DNA of 48,315 bases from Escherichia phage ES. Under the pieces are notes generated by a model. That model made no database searches, was not told the DNA's origin, and was given only the letters and a program-made list of their open reading frames with translations. Shown here piece by piece: positions 2,962 through 33,506 of this stretch. Position numbers and translations under genes: made by a program. Numbering within the stretch: the first letter of the stretch is position 1; the number at the start of each line of letters is the position of its first letter. Location of the stretch: sequence record OR466728.1, one strand, 5' to 3'.

Positions 2962-3315
2962 ATGAAAGCAGTATTTAAAGGGTATAAAAAAGCTGGTTAT
3001 TTTGATTTTACCGTTGGTAAGATTTATGACTTATCAAGAACGCCTGGAAGTAATAATGAATACGTCAAAGTTAAGGATGATAAAGGCTATTTGGGCGTAA
3101 TTAATCTTAGTGTTTATGATTTCGAAGTTATAGAGCCTACCGATTTTGTCGTTAAAGGTGATAATTTTAAAGTTGAAAAGGCTGGGATTAAATACTTCAT
3201 CAACAAAGACATAGTAACTAAAGAGGCATTTTATGAAGTCAGAAGGGAGGTTCGCCAGTTAACACTTAATGGAGTGAAAACATCATCAATCAAGTTCGAA
3301 GTAAAATTCGAGTAA
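2962..3315 (+). CDS. hypothetical Lys-rich protein (AT-rich insertion)
   Basis: 117-aa ORF, RBS GAGAGGAG, AT-rich codon usage unlike flanking genes, own promoter box and terminator. Confidence 0.5.
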   Translation: MKAVFKGYKKAGYFDFTVGKIYDLSRTPGSNNEYVKVKDDKGYLGVINLSVYDFEVIEPTDFVVKGDNFKVEKAGIKYFINKDIVTKEAFYEVRREVRQLTLNGVKTSSIKFEVKFE

Positions 3316-3338
3316 CCATAAAAGCTATGCTAAACTAA

Positions 3339-3358
3339 GCCCCTAAATGGGGCTTTTT
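3339..3358 (+). terminator. rho-independent terminator
   Basis: GCCCC/GGGGC stem, TAAAT loop, 5 T. Confidence 0.55.
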
Positions 3359-3373
3359 ATTGGAGCAAATAAA

Positions 3374-4645
3374 ATGGTAAAAGCAGATTCATACGCCACG
3401 CAATTTCTTGGTGGCTCCAGTGATGGTAGCGAGATTTACGGGCACTTTGGCAACACGTATCTTACACCTCCTTTCGCTGATTCACTGTACGCATCAAACT
3501 CAATTGTACGCCGCATCGTCGACACCATACCGGAGACAGCAATCGCCGCAGGTTTCCATATCGATGGTATTGATAACGAAGGTGAATTCTGGTCCAGGTG
3601 GGATTACCTGAAGGTTAACGAGTCAATCTCTGACGCATGGTCATGGGCGAGGTTATTTGGCGGCTCTGCAATTGTGGCTATCGTTAAGGACAATCGTGCG
3701 CTAACTAGCCCGGTACGTGAAGGCGCGGAACTTGAATCACTTCGCGTTTATGAGCGTAGCCAGGTAAGAGTTCAGACTAAGGAGGAAAACCCTCGCAATG
3801 TGCGATTCGGTAAGCCATTAACGTATCGCATCACGCCAGAAGGTGGCGCCATGTTTTATGATGTGCACTACTCGCGAGTTCACATTATTGATGGCGAGAA
3901 GATTCCTAGTTCATTGCGTCGCGGTAATGACGGGTGGGGTGCTAGCGTTCTGGTTCCTGACCTGCTTGAATCAATCAAGGATTATCAGACGTGTGAGAAA
4001 CTGGCAACTCAGTTATTGCGCCGCAAGCAGCAGGCGGTGTGGAAGGCTAAAGGCCTTGCTGAACTGTGTGACGACGCGGAAGGTTTTGGTGCGGCGAGGT
4101 TGAGGCTTGCCCAGGTTGATGATAACTCTGGCGTTGGTCGCGCGATTGGTATCGACGCTGAAGCTGAAGAGTACAGCGTTCTTAACTCGGATATTGGTGG
4201 GATTGATGGATTCCTCGATAAGAAGTTCGACAGAATTGTTGCTCTGAGCGGTATCCATGAAATCATTCTCAAAGGTCGTAACGTTGGCGGGTTGTCATCA
4301 AGCCAGAATACAGCGCTAGAGACTTTCCACAAGCTAATCGACCGCAAGCGCAATGAGGAGTTACTTCCAGTGCTTGGTTTCTTAATCCCATTCATCACAA
4401 CCGAGCAGGAATGGTCAGTTGAGTTTAACCCTCTAGCTCAGGAATCGAAAAAGGACCGAGCTGAAATACTGAAGAATAACGTTGATTCAATAGCCGCCCT
4501 CATCACTAACGGCGTAATGGATGCTGATGAAGCACGAGATACCTTGCGCGCATTAGCCCCAGAGGTTAAGATTGGTGAGGGTTCGATTGCAAATGAGCAG
4601 CCCGCTCAGGAAGAATCACCAAAAGAGGAGCCTGCAATTGAATAA
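3374..4645 (+). CDS. portal protein (putative)
   Basis: 423 aa from ATG 3374 (RBS GGAG); large ORF directly after terL; call rests on gene order and size. Confidence 0.55.
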   Translation: MVKADSYATQFLGGSSDGSEIYGHFGNTYLTPPFADSLYASNSIVRRIVDTIPETAIAAGFHIDGIDNEGEFWSRWDYLKVNESISDAWSWARLFGGSAIVAIVKDNRALTSPVREGAELESLRVYERSQVRVQTKEENPRNVRFGKPLTYRITPEGGAMFYDVHYSRVHIIDGEKIPSSLRRGNDGWGASVLVPDLLESIKDYQTCEKLATQLLRRKQQAVWKAKGLAELCDDAEGFGAARLRLAQVDDNSGVGRAIGIDAEAEEYSVLNSDIGGIDGFLDKKFDRIVALSGIHEIILKGRNVGGLSSSQNTALETFHKLIDRKRNEELLPVLGFLIPFITTEQEWSVEFNPLAQESKKDRAEILKNNVDSIAALITNGVMDADEARDTLRALAPEVKIGEGSIANEQPAQEESPKEEPAIE

Positions 4646-6317: not shown

Positions 6318-6337
6318 CCTCCTTCGGGAGGTTTTTT
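6318..6337 (+). terminator. rho-independent terminator
   Basis: CCTCC/GGAGG stem, TTCG loop, 6 T. Confidence 0.6.
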
Positions 6338-6390
6338 ATTGCCTTTTATCTGATAGAATGGTAATCACCACAAATAGTCAGGAGATTCAA

Positions 6391-7851
6391 ATGGAGTTAG
6401 TTGAAATCGCTTCAAATAGCTGCGAAGGACTTGAGGCAAAAGCGAAGGCTTTAATGCCATCATTTCAGCCTTATGACAGTATTATTCTGGTAGGTGACTT
6501 GCCAGTCAGGTGTTTAATGGCGTCTGGAACAGACCTAAGCATTACTGATATCAAGTTCCTAACTTTCGGTAGCCGAGCAAGGCTAATCACTGAAATTAAC
6601 AAGATGATTGCTGATGGTTGGGAGATTTTCGGCGAGCCAAAGGCTGACGCAAACAGATTTGGCACAATTATGACCAAAGGCTTTCAGGGCGCTAAGGGTA
6701 CGGCTGGTGTCGCTGGCCCGCAAGGTCCGCAGGGCGTTCAGGGTTTGCAGGGTCCAGAAGGCCCGCAAGGTCCAAAAGGTAATGATGGCGATGATGGTTC
6801 TCAAGGTGAGCGAGGACCACAAGGTCCGCAGGGTATCCGTGGCGAGCAAGGCGTTCAAGGTCCGCAGGGCATCCAGGGGCCAATCGGCTTAACTGGTGAT
6901 ACAGGTCAGCAGGGGCCAGCTGGTCCAACTGGTGCTACTGGTCCTCGTGGACCTCAAGGTGTGCAAGGTGAGGCTGGTCCTGCTGGCGCTACAGGTCTGG
7001 AATTTAAAGGCGCATGGGCTCCAGGTATCGAATACAAAGCAAACGACGCAGTGGCTTATAACGGTTCAACATGGTTTGCTGTGACTGGAAATACAGACGA
7101 GACACCAGGGACGGGAACATCATGGCAGGTAATGGCATCACAAGGTTCTCGCGGACCAGCCGGACCAGAAGGCCCGCAAGGTGATGTTGGCCCGCAAGGT
7201 GAGCAAGGAATTCAAGGACCAATCGGAGCAACTGGACCATCTGGACCTCAGGGCGCAAAAGGTGATACAGGAGACACTGGACCAGCAGGACCAGAAGGAC
7301 CACAAGGTTTAACTGGACCAGCCGGACCGCAAGGCATTCAAGGACCAGCTGGTGTTCGAGGTGCTACTGGTGCAACTGGTGTAAACGGAGCTAATGGCGC
7401 CACAGGACCGCAAGGGCCAGCTGGACCAAATGGTGATTCAGGTCTTAATTACACATATCAGAAATGGTCAAACGTAGCAAATGGCGTTGGGTATGTAACA
7501 ATCCCCGGGATGCCTAATACACAAATAGGAGTTAACAGGAATTCTGCCGGAGCAATTGTGTACACTCTCTATAGTACTGGTGGAACCGTTAGGTATCTTG
7601 ATTGGCGCGCTGAGATACCATCATATGATACAAATGCAATAACCACGGCTGCTGGCACGGCGACAACACCAAGCTCTGCTGGTGTAATAGCAACGATGAA
7701 TACCGTTTTATATAATGGGTTAAGATCAGTCAAATTTATAATTAAGGATTGGGGCGCATCAAGGATTGCTGTAATTGAATGTTACCAACACGGAAGGGCT
7801 AACTCAGACGCGAGGCCTGTTACTATCGAGATGCGCTCATTCTCTTACTAA
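6391..7851 (+). CDS. collagen-like (Gly-X-Y) repeat protein
   Basis: two long uninterrupted G-X-Y tracts (about 6679-6997 and 7141-7453) flanked by globular N- and C-terminal domains; RBS CAGGAG. Confidence 0.8.
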
Positions 7852-28819: not shown

Positions 28820-29743
28820 TTAGTCTAGCAATTCGCTTGCCTTGTATATTCGCTTTCTTATGCCTGACTTGAAAAAATTATCATCATTTGGCATTACCAC
28901 ATCAAGATCGCGATCGTCAGCAACGGCGAGTAAATCAAAAGCGTGGCGAGTGCAAGCGATGCGTAACTTGTATTTTCTAAGCGCGTAAGCAACCATTTCC
29001 ATGTTGTAGCTGGAGTAGCAAACAATCACGCAGCGGTTGCCAGTAGCAAGATGAACGCGAATACCATCAATCCAATTATCGACAAGATAAGCGTACTCAT
29101 CATCTTTAAGGGAGCCAATAACAGACACTGACTGTCGAGTATAATCTTTTGCAGCATAGCTAACATCTCCTTCCTCATTGATAAACATTACATTGCACAT
29201 TTCTTCTGATATGCCGTCACTATAAGCCATAAAGCACGGGACAGCATGGATTAATTCACCTGATTTTGTTCTACCAACATCAAATCCAAACTCGCTATAA
29301 ATACCCTCGTATGTACTGAGTGGAGTTGATTCTACTCTTTCCGTCCTTTCCATTATCTCCAGGCATCTTTCGTGGTCAATCTGTGCTCCCATTTTGTAGA
29401 GCTGGGCTCTTGATGCTTGCTTGTTTGCCTTGTTAACAACTTCAACCGGGATGAGGTTCAGCCACTCACCTAGAGTGTCAATACATTCACTGAATGACTC
29501 ACCCCGCATCTTCATGACCCAAATAATCCCATCACCTGACCCGCACTGGTTGCAGATAATCCCACCGTCACCATCCTCACTAACCTTGTTTGTCCAGCGA
29601 GCGCGGTCAACTCCTCCACAATAAATACATGGCTTATGCTTTTTTGTCTGGAAGAATTTTGGGTCTGCGCCGCAAATGTTTATAAGCGCCTTATCCCACA
29701 GTCCGCGCATTCTTGGTAAAACTTCTTTCTTGTCGTAGTGCAT
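28820..29743 (-). CDS. DNA primase (zinc-ribbon type, putative)
   Basis: 307 aa; N-terminal CIYCGG...CNQCG zinc-binding motif; adjacent to helicase region. Confidence 0.55.
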   Translation of the reverse strand: MHYDKKEVLPRMRGLWDKALINICGADPKFFQTKKHKPCIYCGGVDRARWTNKVSEDGDGGIICNQCGSGDGIIWVMKMRGESFSECIDTLGEWLNLIPVEVVNKANKQASRAQLYKMGAQIDHERCLEIMERTERVESTPLSTYEGIYSEFGFDVGRTKSGELIHAVPCFMAYSDGISEEMCNVMFINEEGDVSYAAKDYTRQSVSVIGSLKDDEYAYLVDNWIDGIRVHLATGNRCVIVCYSSYNMEMVAYALRKYKLRIACTRHAFDLLAVADDRDLDVVMPNDDNFFKSGIRKRIYKASELLD

Positions 29744-29764
29744 ATCAATCTACCTCTTAACAAA

Positions 29765-29795
29765 TAAAAAAGGATGTACCGATTATGGCACATCC
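29765..29795 (-). terminator. hairpin plus T-run (minus strand) after HTH gene
   Basis: GGATGT/ACATCC stem with 12-nt loop, 6 A on plus strand (T-run on minus). Confidence 0.35.
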
Positions 29796-29801
29796 AATCC
29801 T

Positions 29802-30275
29802 TTACTCTTTAGCTTTTCGTGCTGCTTCGTTAGCGGCCTTAATCTTGCGCCATGATCGACACTCTGGCTTGGTGGCTAGCTCTGCTTCAGTAACTACGCG
29901 AAGCATATGACGCTTCTTACATCGAAGTGTTAGCGGCTTACCGTTTCCGTCGAATTGCAGGTCTGGTCGGCAGAACGTAGCTCGAAATCCTTCCTTATTT
30001 CTCTTATACGCATTGTGAGCTTTCTGCGCTCCTCGAGCCGAAATCATCCCGCGATCAAACCATTGCTCTACAGTCTGGTGAGATACGTTTAACTGCTTTG
30101 CGATGTTCGCCTTTGTTCCATAGAAATCAAGAACCATCTCCAGGCGAGCACGTAGCCCAGCCTTTACCTCATCTTTCAATACGTAGTAGCCTGACGGTCG
30201 TTTGCGTTGCTTCTTGTCTTGTGTGCGTACCGTTCCGTTATTGCCGTTAATAGTTCGTTTGTCAATTTCACACAT
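29802..30275 (-). CDS. HTH DNA-binding protein (candidate transcription regulator)
   Basis: 157 aa, basic, HTH-like GTKANIAKQLNVSHQTVEQWFDRG; RBS GAGG; a dyad box overlaps its 5' region. Confidence 0.5.
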   Translation of the reverse strand: MCEIDKRTINGNNGTVRTQDKKQRKRPSGYYVLKDEVKAGLRARLEMVLDFYGTKANIAKQLNVSHQTVEQWFDRGMISARGAQKAHNAYKRNKEGFRATFCRPDLQFDGNGKPLTLRCKKRHMLRVVTEAELATKPECRSWRKIKAANEAARKAKE

Positions 30276-30288
30276 CTCATTACCTCAA

Positions 30289-30306
30289 TAGCACTTTTTG
30301 TTAAAC
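30289..30306 (+). promoter_or_regulatory. dyad box copy 7 (TAGCACTTTTTGTTAAAC) in divergent region
   Basis: TATTAT about 21-22 nt downstream; helicase ATG 83 nt downstream; 14 nt from the ATG of the divergent HTH gene. Confidence 0.5.
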
Positions 30307-30371
30307 AATAGGTTCGATAATTGATATTATACAGCAATGCAACGAACTAACAAACTGTCAGGATACTTAAA

Positions 30372-33300
30372 ATGCTTCCAGTAGAGCGCTTAGTGGCAAA
30401 CTTTGATCAAGAGAAAATCAAACAGATTCAGAAAGATTACCAGTTTGGAGACATAACTCCTTACGAATTCCAGTGTGTAACATTTGACGCAATTGGTAAG
30501 GCTATTGGTAAGTACGAGGCTCCATTCATCGCAGACCTGTCTGTATCTGCTGGTAAAACAATAATTCTTGCCATGATTGGGAAAAGAATGGAGCAACTTG
30601 GACTTCCTTATATGGTACTGTCTCGCCAGTCAGAGATTATCAGCCAGAACGCAGAGGAACTCCGTAACTTCGGTATCCGTAATAGCGTCTATTGCGCTGG
30701 ACTTAACGTTAAATCAGTTTACTACCCAACCATAGTGGCTAGTGAGGGTACAGCTGCCAATGGCCTGTTTAAGGGGCTTGGTGACTATGTTCCTGCTGTT
30801 ATCGCGATAGATGAGTGCTTAACTGGAGACACGATGATAACCACCGATTCAGGGATGATGAGGATTGATAGCGAAGACCTTATCAATCATAAAATAAAAT
30901 GCATAAACGAAAGCACTGGTGATTACTTCTATCATAAGCCAAAAAGAGTTTTTACTAATGGTGTAAGACATGTATCATCAATTAAATTAGAAAGCGGAGA
31001 GGAAATAAAATGCACGAGTACACACAAACTTTATTCGAACGGCTGCTGGGTAGGAGCGGGAAAACTTCGTATTGGGATGAATCTGTCGCTAGACGGCTCG
31101 CAGGACAAATTTACGAAAAAGCTCCTGCGTGCAAGTGTGGCTGTGGTGAAAAAGTTATGCCGCATTCAAGCAAGGGGTTAGGCGTACTTCTTAAGAACCC
31201 TTTCGATTTCTATTTGGATTACAGAACGGGGCATCATAATTCAACCGTCAACCCATCAATGGAGGTTGATGACTTTTTACATCAAAACATTCTTGCGGCA
31301 ATGGCTGGTGATGGTTGCTTGATTAAAAATACAGAAAAAGGAACGCATAGGCTATCTTGGAATATGGGAAATAAGGAGCACGCACTAAGCAAGGTTGAAA
31401 GGTTTGCAAAACTAAACCCTAGATACAGGGAGAAGAAAAACCCTGGATTTGGCGACAACTGGTTTTGCGTATCAACATCATGTACGAAAGTTCTGGATTC
31501 ATATGCTGATAAGTACGGAAATTCTAAGGATGGTTACGATATTGGAAAGATATGCAGAGAGCTTGATCCAGTTGGTTGGGCTGCTTACTTTGGTGATGAT
31601 GGTCATTGCACTGTAAGCTCAGGGAAGAGGGTTGTAGAAATCCACACCGAATCATTTAGCAGGCGTGAAGTTCAATCAGTAGTTGATGCGCTAATAGCAT
31701 TTATTGCTAATGACGGAGTTAATGTTAGAAGCTATATTGGCGGCAAGAAAAAGAGAGAGCTTTACTCAGTATCAATAACAACGAGGTCGGCACAAGATGA
31801 GTTTTTTAAGAGAATTAGTAAGCACATGGAAAATGGCGTGGAATACAAAATCAAGCAAAATTAAAGACATCTCACCCATTGGCAAGGAACTTGTTTGGGA
31901 TATAGAGATGCCTGAGCACCATAATTTCATTGCTGACGGGGTCGTGGCACATAATTGCCACATGGTGGACCATATGGATATCGTAGAAGCTGAAGAGAAT
32001 GAGGAAACATTCGAGCAGATGAGCACGAAGAAGGGTGAGATGGTCTTTAAGGATGGTGTGAATACCGGGCTTCTTGGCACTGGTCGCGCGCAATACACGT
32101 TAATCATTACCGAAATGAAGCGTCGATGCAAGGAGAAGTACGGTCGCGAACTTCGTATCTTTGGGTTAACTGGTAGCCCGTACCGTAACAACGACCACAT
32201 TGTAGTTAGTAACCCAAATGTCCGTGGATTCTGGCGCAAAACTGTAATGCAAGTGCCAACCAGCTACCTTGTTGACTTGGGGTTCGTTGTTCCTACTGTC
32301 TACGGTGAAGTTGGTGATTTGGGCTACGACCTTAGTGAGTTCACTCCTGATGGAAGTGATGGGGTTAAGGACTTCAGCAAGAAAGAAATGGATGCGATGG
32401 CTGCAAAGATTCACGAAAACCAAACGATGACACAAAAGATAATGGGATTTGCTGCTAGGTTTATGGAAACAAGGAATGCTGCATTGGTAACTTGCGCTGG
32501 CAAACAGCATTGCGAGGAGGCGGCAGCCGCACTTCCAGAAGGTGTTACTTGGGCGATAGTTACCAACTCCACTGGTGATAAGAAGCGTAGAGAGATACTT
32601 GAGAAGGCAGCCAGCGGAGAATATAAGTTCATATTTCAGATTGGTTGCCTCACAACTGGCGTAAACTGCCCCCCGTGGGATACAAGCATTATCCTGAGGA
32701 AGGTTGGTAGCATTACTCTACTCATTCAGTTGCTTGGTCGTGGTATGCGTATCCTTAAGAAGAAGCACAAAGAAGCTGGAATGGTAAAAGATGACCATGT
32801 TGTTCTTGATTTTGCCGGGACGCTTGACGATATGGCAGAACTCTACTTCGACCCAATTATAGAAGAGGTTCAGGACCAGAAGTTTAAGTCATCCAGGAAA
32901 GGGGGTGATGAACCAAGAATTTGCCCAGCATGTTCTTATGAGAATTCTCCTTTCGCACGGCGCTGTAATAATGTGATTGACGGTAAACGATGCGAGCATT
33001 TTTTTCAGTTCCGTCTTTGCGAAGATATTGAGGACCCGCAGACGAAAGTTATCGTTAAGAAAGGTTGCGGAGAGAAAAATGACGTTGCAGCAAAGAACTG
33101 CCGCTGCTGCGGAGAGATGCTGATAGACCCAAATGCAAAGCTATCTGGAAAAATGTATCGGAAAGGGGACTGGTTGAGAGTTTATGACTTCAAGATTGGG
33201 TTGACAAAAAACCAGTCAGGGATCGTTGCTTCATATGAGGTAATGGCTCATAGTGGAGATAAGTTCCGAGCTTATGAAACATTCTTCCCGGAGTCAGACC

Positions 33301-33506
33301 ATCGTGTTTGTTCTGTCAAATGGAAGGCGTTTTGCTCAACTCACATCGAGAACAGGACTGAGGCTTTTAGGATTGGCAGATTGCGTAATGCTAAAATGAT
33401 TATGACAAATGCACATCTTTTCCGTGCGCCGCTAAGGATTACGCACCGCAAGAATCAGAAGTCGCAAGATATTATCGCCAACAAATCATTTACGATGGAG
33501 GATTGA
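30372..33506 (+). CDS. SF2 DExH-box DNA helicase, interrupted by an intein (exteins 30372-30815 and 31956-33506)
   Basis: Walker A SVSAGKT; motif II DE|CH restored on excision; three track ORFs (30372, 31010, 31797) belong to one gene. Confidence 0.75.
30816..31955 (+). mobile_element. intein with LAGLIDADG homing-endonuclease domain (1140 nt, 380 codons)
   Basis: starts CLTGDTMI, block B TSTHKL, LAGLIDADG-like ILAAMAGDGCL and AAYFGDDGHC, ends NFIADGVVAHN before +1 Cys; endonuclease domain is in a different frame. Confidence 0.8.

Follow-up and report, generated by a model that had tools for sequence, protein, structure and literature searches.

The window, the whole 48,315-nucleotide (nt) stretch of Escherichia phage ES (OR466728.1) analysed here, carries a helicase gene interrupted at its conserved motif II by a 1140-bp element. 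We conclude that this is very probably a "fractured" gene, in which a mobile cassette comprises a naturally split, trans-splicing class-1 intein and a free-standing LAGLIDADG endonuclease gene placed between the intein's N-terminal and C-terminal halves (IntN and IntC). An earlier reading of the letters by themselves (the sequence-only reading) had taken the insert for a single self-splicing intein of 380 codons with a LAGLIDADG domain inside it; its borders prove correct to the nucleotide, but its single frame does not.

The locus is 100% identical to that of Escherichia phage AN_ECEAS (PP944860.1; Drexlerviridae, Braunvirinae). The 1140 nt of the insert (30816..31955), a multiple of three, lie between the GAG (Glu) and TGC (Cys) codons of helicase motif II: the host protein reads ..VIAIDE up to 30815, the insert begins with CLTGDTMI at 30816 and ends with ..NFIADGVVAHN at 31955, and Cys-His-Met-Val-Asp follows. 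Both ends and the length are exactly those proposed in the sequence-only reading, and its claim that excision would rebuild the motif was also borne out, since conceptual removal of the insert yields AIDE-CHMVD and a gap-free 664-aa (amino-acid) helicase with motif II restored at DE/CH. A comparison with intein-free relatives, to which that reading had looked for support, provides it: the spliced product aligns without gaps to the insert-free helicases of P818 (92% identity) and phiA2-1 (82%), neither of which contains the 380 residues. The empty site is GATGAG/TGCCAC (DE/CH) in P818 and GATGAG/GCGCAC (DE/AH) in phiA2-1. Just one of the 46 phage records that match the locus, the window-identical one, covers the insert; the rest match the flanks only, with the matches to insert-free relatives ending at about query position 446 and restarting at about 1588. 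In phage H2, where both flanks align, the span in the record falls short of that in the query by 1140 nt. With respect to the host gene, the N-extein contains a Walker A motif (SVSAGKT, 30540-30560) and has partial RadD-like and PHROG "DNA helicase" matches, while the C-extein carries Helicase_C (Pfam, E 5.5e-9), a C-terminal zinc-ribbon-like region and a partial RadD-like match of 150 bits. On these matches the gene classes as a superfamily 2 (SF2), RadD-like helicase, the RadD model being matched only partially.

Within the insert the helicase/intein frame contains ten stop codons, from 31179 to 31776. The splicing blocks A, B, F and G are in this frame and both LAGLIDADG motifs are in the +2 frame. 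Thus the TSTH block B and the two LAGLIDADG-type motifs named in the sequence-only reading are indeed present (Table 1), but the 380-codon frame had been pieced together from motifs of two different frames. A contiguous bifunctional intein consists of one uninterrupted open reading frame (ORF); here there are stops in the intein frame and the endonuclease is offset by +2, so the element is not of that kind. The locus has, rather, three overlapping ORFs. ORF1 and ORF3 are in one frame, and ORF2 has 172 nt in common with IntN and 68 nt with the IntC ORF. Because the gene is broken into two ORFs, a complete helicase would need protein trans-splicing of two polypeptides. What survives of the claim of an intein with a LAGLIDADG endonuclease in the helicase is therefore an element at DE/CH with splicing-competent termini and an associated endonuclease, whereas contiguous cis-splicing and an in-frame endonuclease domain must be given up. 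Similarly, the sporadic distribution is as expected of the homing element that had been proposed, but the self-splicing single precursor is lost with the break into two ORFs.

Table 1. Coordinates of the fractured helicase locus and its parts in the window (block and motif names as in the text; SD-like, resembling a Shine-Dalgarno site).
Feature	Position	Strand	Remarks
ORF1	30372..31181	+	helicase N-part (residues 1-148) plus 121-residue IntN
N-extein	30372..30815	+	helicase residues 1-148, ends ..AIDE; gap-free alignment to P818 and phiA2-1 helicases
IntN	30816..31181	+	121 codons plus TAG stop (31179-31181); Cys1 at 30816-30818; Hint N-lobe to ..LSLDG (31097)
SD-like GGAGAGG	30996..31002	+	7 nt upstream of ORF2 ATG, inside IntN codons S-G-E-E
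ORF2	31010..31864	+	284 aa plus TAA; putative LAGLIDADG endonuclease, offset +2 from helicase
Block B, TSTH	31014-31025	+	within IntN
C-K-C-G-C-G module	31130-31147	+	within ORF2
LAGLIDADG motif 1, ILAAMAGDGCL	31289-31321	+	ORF2 frame
LAGLIDADG motif 2, WAAYFGDDGHC	31577-31609	+	ORF2 frame
SD-like GAGGT	31783..31787	+	9 nt upstream of first Met of IntC-helicase ORF, inside endonuclease coding region
ORF3	31797 or 31833..33506	+	IntC (53 residues from 31797) plus helicase residues 149-664
IntC	31797..31955	+	53 codons from ATG 31797, or 41 from ATG 31833 (depositors' choice)
MAWN-K segment, invariant	31833-31850	+	within IntC, after leader
Block F, VWDIEMPEHHNF	31893-31928	+	within IntC
Block G, ..VVAHN	31941-31955	+	within IntC
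C-extein	31956..33506	+	Cys+1 TGC (31956-31958), then H-M-V-D..; 516 aa plus stop; helicase residues 149-664

The two intein termini are recognised by profile search, as the sequence-only reading had anticipated. TIGR01445 (intein_Nterm) matches ORF1 residues 149-221 with 33.0 bits (cut-off 24.5), beginning exactly at Cys149, and TIGR01443 (intein_Cterm) matches ORF3 residues 34-54 with 26.9 bits (cut-off 15.6), ending at the HN/C junction. Among solved structures the best sequence match of IntN is the Spl DnaX mini-intein (7cfv, E 1.2e-9); DnaB inteins are matched at about 3e-5. Among seven sequences the residues C1, T67 and H70 (T-x-x-H) are invariant, as are W155-F165 (block F), H173, N174 and Cys+1 (C175); thus the catalytic residues are unchanged across lineages that are just 55-72% identical in IntN. 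Modelling IntN fused to IntC with AlphaFold2 gave a complete predicted Hint fold with a pLDDT (predicted local distance difference test) of 88.4. Foldseek against the PDB matches this model to the Spl DnaX, Ssp DnaB, Mtu RecA, Npu DnaE, gp41-1 and NrdJ-1 inteins with probability 1.00, and the target-normalised template-modelling (TM) scores to mini-inteins and split inteins are 0.76-0.86. With both termini, the predicted Hint fold and an in-frame insertion whose removal restores the host protein, the element classes as a class-1 intein, and we infer that it splices. The expected junction peptide of the ligated helicase is GLGDYVPAVIAIDECHMVDHMDIVEAEENEETFEQMSTK.

The splicing blocks are accompanied by two stretches that are dual-coded with the endonuclease. 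One is the basic tail of IntN, about 26 aa long (31098-31178, ..DKFTKKLLRASVAVVKKLCRIQARG), which results when the 5' region of the endonuclease is read in the alternative frame; the other is the IntC leader (31797-31832, MSFLRELVSTWK). Both are helical in the fused model (residues 99-116 and 123-137, pLDDT 77-89). Six of the eight loci have an IntN tail with a net charge of +5 to +7, the other two, in Pectobacterium phages, one of +2 to +3; the net charge of the IntC core is -2 to -4. It is tempting to speculate from the predicted structure that the helical tail and leader might pair as an association clamp.

ORF2 begins with an ATG inside the block-B codons of IntN. It matches Pfam PF03161 (LAGLIDADG_2) with 29.2 bits (cut-off 25) and phrog_11023 (E 1.8e-8); there was no NCBIfam match, and a PDB sequence search gave no significant match. 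The acidic residues of both motifs, in G100-D101-G102 and G195-D196-D197-G198, are invariant in 21 sequences. In an AlphaFold2 model (pLDDT 84.7) the best PDB folds are I-WcaI and I-SceI (E 2e-9 to 4e-8, TM 0.68-0.70), the matches to the intein-borne PI-SceI, PI-PfuI and Tli VMA enzymes being weaker (E about 1e-5). By motifs, profile and predicted fold, ORF2 classes as a LAGLIDADG homing endonuclease of the I-SceI-like, monomeric double-motif type. An internal Met at 31157 ("MPHSS"), which some gene callers take as the start of ORF2, was rejected: it is not conserved (VFPH in the contig L006, TGPN in L010), and it lies downstream of the invariant C-K-C-G-C-G module.

The same layout was found in the Pectobacterium phages Amona, Abuela, Ymer, Koroua and Sabo, in three IMG/VR contigs and in two contigs from the Sequence Read Archive (SRA), and is shared by at least six lineages. 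Full-length homologues of ORF2, aligned from residue 1, occur in the five Pectobacterium phages (42% identity), in the IMG/VR contigs (68-69%) and in SRA-derived contigs (45-54%). All of the carriers have the insert at the same helicase site (·DE/C[LV]TGD … [AM]HN/C[HQ]), with insert lengths of 1140-1149 nt, all multiples of three, an endonuclease offset of +2, a 5' overlap of 166-178 nt, an endonuclease whose 3' end overlaps IntC and an IntN stop 23-28 residues past the last N-lobe strand. The intein frame has 6-13 stops in each of the six lineages, and every one of the 19 IntN-bearing protein clusters found is 243-284 aa long. Sequencing error or a recent frameshift are ruled out by the fact that six independently assembled lineages have this frame structure in common, and recent decay is likewise excluded by the conserved layout. 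Word-indexed searches for a contiguous close relative, with the endonuclease and with fused IntN plus IntC as queries, reach close relatives only and gave only small, ORF-sized proteins.

The start signals are also conserved. In all carriers the ORF2 ATG straddles the codon of the block-B cysteine and the one preceding it (xxA TGC), and in six of six lineages a GGAG, GGTGAGG or AGGAGA lies 7-10 nt upstream of it; this SD-like motif is kept despite differences in the intein residues that it overlaps (SGEE vs SGDT). Of the six lineages shown, four have GAGG or AAGGA ahead of the aligned IntC Met, this being deduced from the encoded residues for the two UViG (uncultivated viral genome) loci. The conserved ATG and SD-like site suggest that ORF2 has its own translation signals. 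The result is a dense form of dual coding, in which a start codon and a putative ribosome-binding site are written within the conserved catalytic block of another protein.

Selection on the individual frames was measured on closely related pairs, three of UViGs and the pair Amona/Abuela, as counts of synonymous to non-synonymous changes. In the endonuclease-only region the +2 frame gave 25:10, 30:15, 13:10 and 29:17, and the helicase frame 2:34, 3:42, 1:22 and 3:43; the range 2:34 to 3:43 implies that the helicase frame is non-coding there. In the IntN-only region the helicase frame gave 12:4, 14:6 and 14:5 in the three UViG pairs and 2:6 in Amona/Abuela, and in the exteins 20:0, 38:7 and 16:0 (38:7, 16:0, 15:0 and 12:0 for the C-extein). 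At the C-K-C-G-C-G module conservation is driven by the endonuclease frame, since what reads as V/A changes in the IntN tail amounts to synonymous Cys changes in the endonuclease; at M-A-W-N-x-K it is driven by the IntC frame. The 5' overlap, considered in both frames, has diverged by 1.2-3.0% in the three UViG pairs, vs 8-10% in the adjacent IntN, a reduction of the sort that dual coding predicts; the Amona/Abuela pair has no such reduction (5.5% vs 4.2% in the adjacent IntN). Purifying selection acts on each frame where coding is expected.

We propose that one mRNA would carry three overlapping cistrons, each apparently with its own conserved SD-like site and ATG. ORF1 would yield helicase(1-148)-IntN and ORF3 IntC-helicase(149-664), and the two intein halves would join non-covalently as one Hint domain, perhaps helped by the basic helical tail of IntN and the acidic IntC. 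In the class-1 chemistry that would then proceed, an N-S acyl shift at Cys1 is followed by trans-thioesterification to Cys+1, after which the terminal Asn cyclises and an S-N shift completes the reaction. Judging from the invariant catalytic residues and the predicted fold, the exteins would be ligated to a 664-aa helicase with DECH restored. For the product of ORF2 we predict cleavage, in mixed infections, of helicase alleles that lack the insert, at their conserved motif-II DNA; repair from the occupied allele would then copy in the whole cassette, as the distribution and the patterns of identity suggest. The 6-13 stops found in phage inserts of about 41% GC mean that the intein must be obligately split.

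Several observations weigh against this interpretation. On neither half does the Pfam Intein_splicing model reach its gathering cut-off (21.1 and 23.8 vs 35.8 bits), and the fused AlphaFold2 model rests on an alignment of seven sequences, its five versions spanning pLDDT 47 to 88. The IntC ORF has two equally conserved candidate starts, 31797 and 31833. Folding of five lineages in search of hairpins that might sequester the ribosome-binding sites at the ORF2 and ORF3 starts gave z scores of about 0 (single lineages about -2.5 to -2.7), and the counts of promoters and terminators equal the shuffle expectation, with none above chance. The shared frame of ORF1 and ORF3 and the multiple-of-three insert would be expected as well from a contiguous ancestor or from a double frameshift. 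Finally, a -1 slippery heptamer, G_GGA_AAA (31058-31064, IntN frame), is present in four of the six lineages.

Perhaps the halves of the intein never splice and are only non-covalent association domains that hold the helicase fragments together. There is a reported precedent in the fragmented NrdA of phage Aeh1, a phage enzyme split by a homing endonuclease and yet assembled by way of interaction domains that a mobile element left behind (PMC3045599). We nevertheless regard this as unlikely: Cys1, T-x-x-H, block F, His-Asn and Cys+1 are all invariant in lineages that are 55-72% identical in IntN, and some 170 foreign residues would have to stay inside motif II, the Walker B catalytic site.

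Very unlikely, in our opinion, are two programmed frameshifts that would generate a contiguous bifunctional precursor, the first (-1) in the 5' overlap and the second (+1) in the 3' one. Two frames are open in both overlaps, both contain A-rich runs, and the idea would account for the frame common to ORF1 and ORF3 and for an insert that is always a multiple of three; the heptamer at 31058 would provide a site for the first shift. However, a scan of both overlaps for X_XXY_YYZ heptamers and homopolymers found no slippery site that is kept in all lineages, and a shift at G_GGA_AAA would lose the last strands of the IntN lobe, fusing a truncated IntN to the endonuclease; this heptamer is probably incidental. 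Moreover, ORF2 has a conserved ATG and SD-like site in six of six lineages, ORF3 in four out of six shown, a related locus (L012, described below) has its parts in three frames with an intergenic gap, and two efficient shifts in a replication gene would be unparsimonious.

There is a slighter chance still that the element is decaying, with an inactive, dispensable helicase whose ORFs are remnants, a view to which the depositors' labels of ORF1 ("hypothetical protein" or "minor tail protein") and their oversight of ORF2 might lend some colour. Against it, the exteins are under strongly purifying selection (20:0, 38:7, 16:0), IntN and the endonuclease are also under selection, the architecture is kept across lineages whose endonucleases are about 43% identical, and the carriers include isolated, propagated phages (PMC11445585).

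A group I (or II) intron with a LAGLIDADG ORF could conceivably interrupt a mini-intein gene whose contiguity is restored by RNA splicing, and the best folds of ORF2, I-WcaI and I-SceI, would suit it. Endonucleases that are I-SceI-like and of the PF03161 type are typically intron-encoded. We nonetheless give this hardly any credence, as protein-coding constraint, in one or both frames, acts on almost all of the insert and leaves no room for a ribozyme core of about 200 nt, and a scan of 30300..32500 with Rfam 15 (E <= 10) found no group I or II intron family, only two unrelated, chance-level matches (E > 3).

The canonical contiguous intein, 380 residues in frame with an internal LAGLIDADG domain and cis-splicing from one precursor, has next to no chance of being correct, for although the termini, blocks B, F and G and the LAGLIDADG motifs all fall within 30816..31955 and the length is 3 x 380, the ten intein-frame stops, the placement of the LAGLIDADG motifs in another frame, the recurrence of this structure in six lineages (6-13 stops) and the non-coding substitution pattern of the helicase frame in the endonuclease-only region (2:34 to 3:43) all oppose it.

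The identities to the window bear on the mobility of the element. In P0022 the N-extein is 51% and IntN 82% identical, in P0023 95% and 79%, and in P0026 32% and 72%; in L006 the N-extein (40%) and C-extein (48%) are far behind IntN (71%) and the endonuclease (69%). Intein and extein identity are thus decoupled, and this, combined with a presence/absence polymorphism that is exact, is what horizontal transfer by homing should produce. We therefore infer that homing was the act of transfer, and the sporadic distribution and the decoupled identities likewise suggest that the ORF2 product cleaves the insert-free allele.

Other polymorphisms of this type occur in the neighbourhood. The IMG/VR contig L008 has an HNH-type endonuclease ORF (6331-6915, ..HRIIWEMHNEPIQGGMQIDHINHVRDDNRIENLRLV..) between the helicase and a VRR-NUC gene; L006 and L007, collinear in other respects, lack this ORF, which so constitutes a second, independent homing-endonuclease polymorphism at the locus. 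In the insert-free phages P818 (L002:315-845) and phiA2-1 (L003:399-878) an HNH or "endonuclease" gene adjoins the primase gene. The window has no HNH gene adjoining its primase: 28820..30275 runs from the primase straight to a 157-aa ORF. Comparison of these gene contents indicates different homing endonucleases at different sites of one replication module.

An exhaustive profile search places the phage endonuclease in a wider lineage. Its nearest outgroups are proteins of 250-430 aa with one to three "AP·CKCGCG" modules, and in-frame, intein-borne relatives appear only at E about 1e-14 or weaker. Two of these outgroups are those of L012 and L013. A fractured SF2 helicase of another kind (..SDE/CLTYN… …VVHN/CHR) is found in L012:2034-4693 (ENA ERZ15184984 NODE_827, 37% GC). 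It has a related C-x-C-G-C-G LAGLIDADG gene between its halves, with IntN, endonuclease and IntC in three different frames and an intergenic gap of about 70 nt ahead of the endonuclease gene; the called IntC start has no ATG. In L013:2774-4063 (Logan ERR9580615, 59% GC, a cellular gene neighbourhood) there is a 430-codon dnaX intein, VIDE/CLTGD…LLVHN/CHMLS, whose frame has no stops and in which a 331-aa LAGLIDADG ORF (3001..3996) is nested at an offset of +2; the middle 330 or so codons of this intein are low-complexity "junk", the -1 reading of the nested ORF. The extein context I-D-E/C-H-M is identical in the L013 dnaX and the phage helicase; this identity suggests that a shared target sequence allowed a switch from one ATPase to another, unrelated one. 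Finally, more distant members occur in the metagenomic proteins P0122 (1120 aa) and P0135 (1004 aa), each of which contains two LAGLIDADG inteins that are contiguous and whose endonucleases belong to the same broad lineage; this is the in-frame state, and these endonucleases (LLGD… WY·DDG… SM·YK) have no C-x-C-G-C-G module. By sequence, then, the phage element is a split, AT-richer relative of a non-canonical dnaX-type intein, and the endonuclease lineage presents four states: free-standing-sized, nested out of frame, gene-fracturing and in frame.

It is possible, although we hold it to be doubtful as a whole, that the fractured phage gene represents a surviving intermediate on the way to canonical LAGLIDADG inteins. 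The invader of a mini-intein, at +2, may have been an I-SceI-like, free-standing endonuclease that carried a C-x-C-G-C-G module for DNA binding. The cassette may have moved between the dnaX Walker B and the SF2-helicase motif II via the shared I-D-E/C-H-M sequence. Whether it is contiguous, as in the GC-rich L013, or obligately split, as in the AT-richer phages, may be set by the density of stop codons in the unused frame. As a corollary, the dual-coded IntN tail and IntC leader, both predicted to be helical, may have been co-opted as an association clamp.

The public annotation of the locus can be corrected in several respects. In PP944860.1 ORF1 is a "hypothetical protein", the "DNA helicase" is begun at 31833, inside IntC, and ORF2 is unannotated; in phage ES, ORF1 is labelled "minor tail protein". 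The Pectobacterium phage records annotate the LAGLIDADG gene, but with various truncations, and no public record of the element mentions an intein. Across the IntC/extein junction there is also an antisense 155-aa ORF (31772-32239, - strand) with neither conservation nor profile support, which is most likely spurious.

Most canonical inteins have endonucleases of the LAGLIDADG family. The element would supply, in its LAGLIDADG version, the fractured-gene intermediate that the invasion model predicts and that was previously represented only by GIY-YIG and Vsr-like enzymes, and its relatives are found in three other states (free-standing-sized, nested out of frame and in frame). Since the carriers include isolated, culturable phages of E. 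coli and Pectobacterium with close insert-free relatives, the system is experimentally tractable, unlike the metagenomic examples. It is also a candidate natural split-intein pair, with Cys1, Cys+1 and an IDE/CHM junction, that may serve for protein ligation. Literature searches, whose coverage was incomplete, gave no earlier account of the element in Drexlerviridae or in Pectobacterium phages of the Ymer genus.

The best-described counterparts are the fractured genes of Dassa, London, Stoddard, Schueler-Furman and Pietrokovski (2009, PMC2677866), split inteins that have a free-standing gene for an endonuclease between their halves. In that study there are 26 loci, all metagenomic, with endonucleases of the GIY-YIG or Vsr-like families; the word LAGLIDADG is absent from it. 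The present locus has the same layout of two host ORFs ending in IntN and beginning with IntC and an endonuclease ORF between them, and trans-splicing of the two host products is predicted. In both cases the setting is a phage and the break falls at a conserved motif of a replication or repair gene, the endonuclease gene contains both the stop of the upstream ORF and the Met of the downstream one, and the overlap of the endonuclease 3' end with IntC is similar (68 nt here vs 6-69 bp). The differences are that the endonuclease here is of the LAGLIDADG family, overlaps IntN by 166-178 nt and has its start and SD-like site embedded in block B, that we found no upstream hairpin or late-promoter element, and that the host gene is an SF2 RadD-like helicase, not gp41, of cultured enterobacterial phages rather than of marine metagenome reads.

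Actinobacteriophage inteins with out-of-frame or antisense endonucleases have been described by Gosselin, Arsenault and Gogarten (2025, 10.1101/2025.01.02.630785). As this preprint describes them, the endonucleases are nested in the homing-endonuclease region of the intein, and split inteins are set apart as another outcome; the sense-strand case that is out of frame resembles endonuclease VII, whereas the cases of the LAGLIDADG family lie antisense. Our element resembles these inteins in having its endonuclease within the intein's endonuclease region and outside the intein frame, in the proposed origin by invasion of an intein by a free-standing endonuclease and in the evidence of continued horizontal transfer; it differs in that its LAGLIDADG gene is on the sense strand and its intein is split.

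Compared to the canonical LAGLIDADG inteins (for example PI-SceI, PI-PfuI and Tli VMA), the element has the same Hint domain, by prediction, a double-motif endonuclease at the same place between block B/N4 and block F, and likewise a conserved catalytic motif as its target. Its endonuclease, however, is out of frame, nearer in predicted fold to the intron-type I-SceI and I-WcaI (about 1e-9 vs about 1e-5), assigned to Pfam LAGLIDADG_2 instead of LAGLIDADG_3, and equipped with an N-terminal C-x-C-G-C-G module.

Another comparison is with the non-canonical intein of cyanobacterial dnaX (Pol III gamma/tau), whose LAGLIDADG ORF lies outside the intein frame. The preprint 10.1101/2025.01.02.630785 credits this arrangement, in Synechocystis, to Gorbalenya (1998) and terms it "anti-sense". 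The dnaX intein of L013 has the same I-D-E/C-H-M context as the phage helicase, is 33% identical in IntN and 39% in IntC, and carries a homologous endonuclease (29%) with the C-x-C-G-C-G module, on the same strand and at the same +2 offset. Nevertheless, its 430-codon frame is stop-free, so that one chain is possible, whereas the phages have 6-13 stops, and the gene that it occupies is dnaX, whereas that of the phage element is an SF2 helicase.

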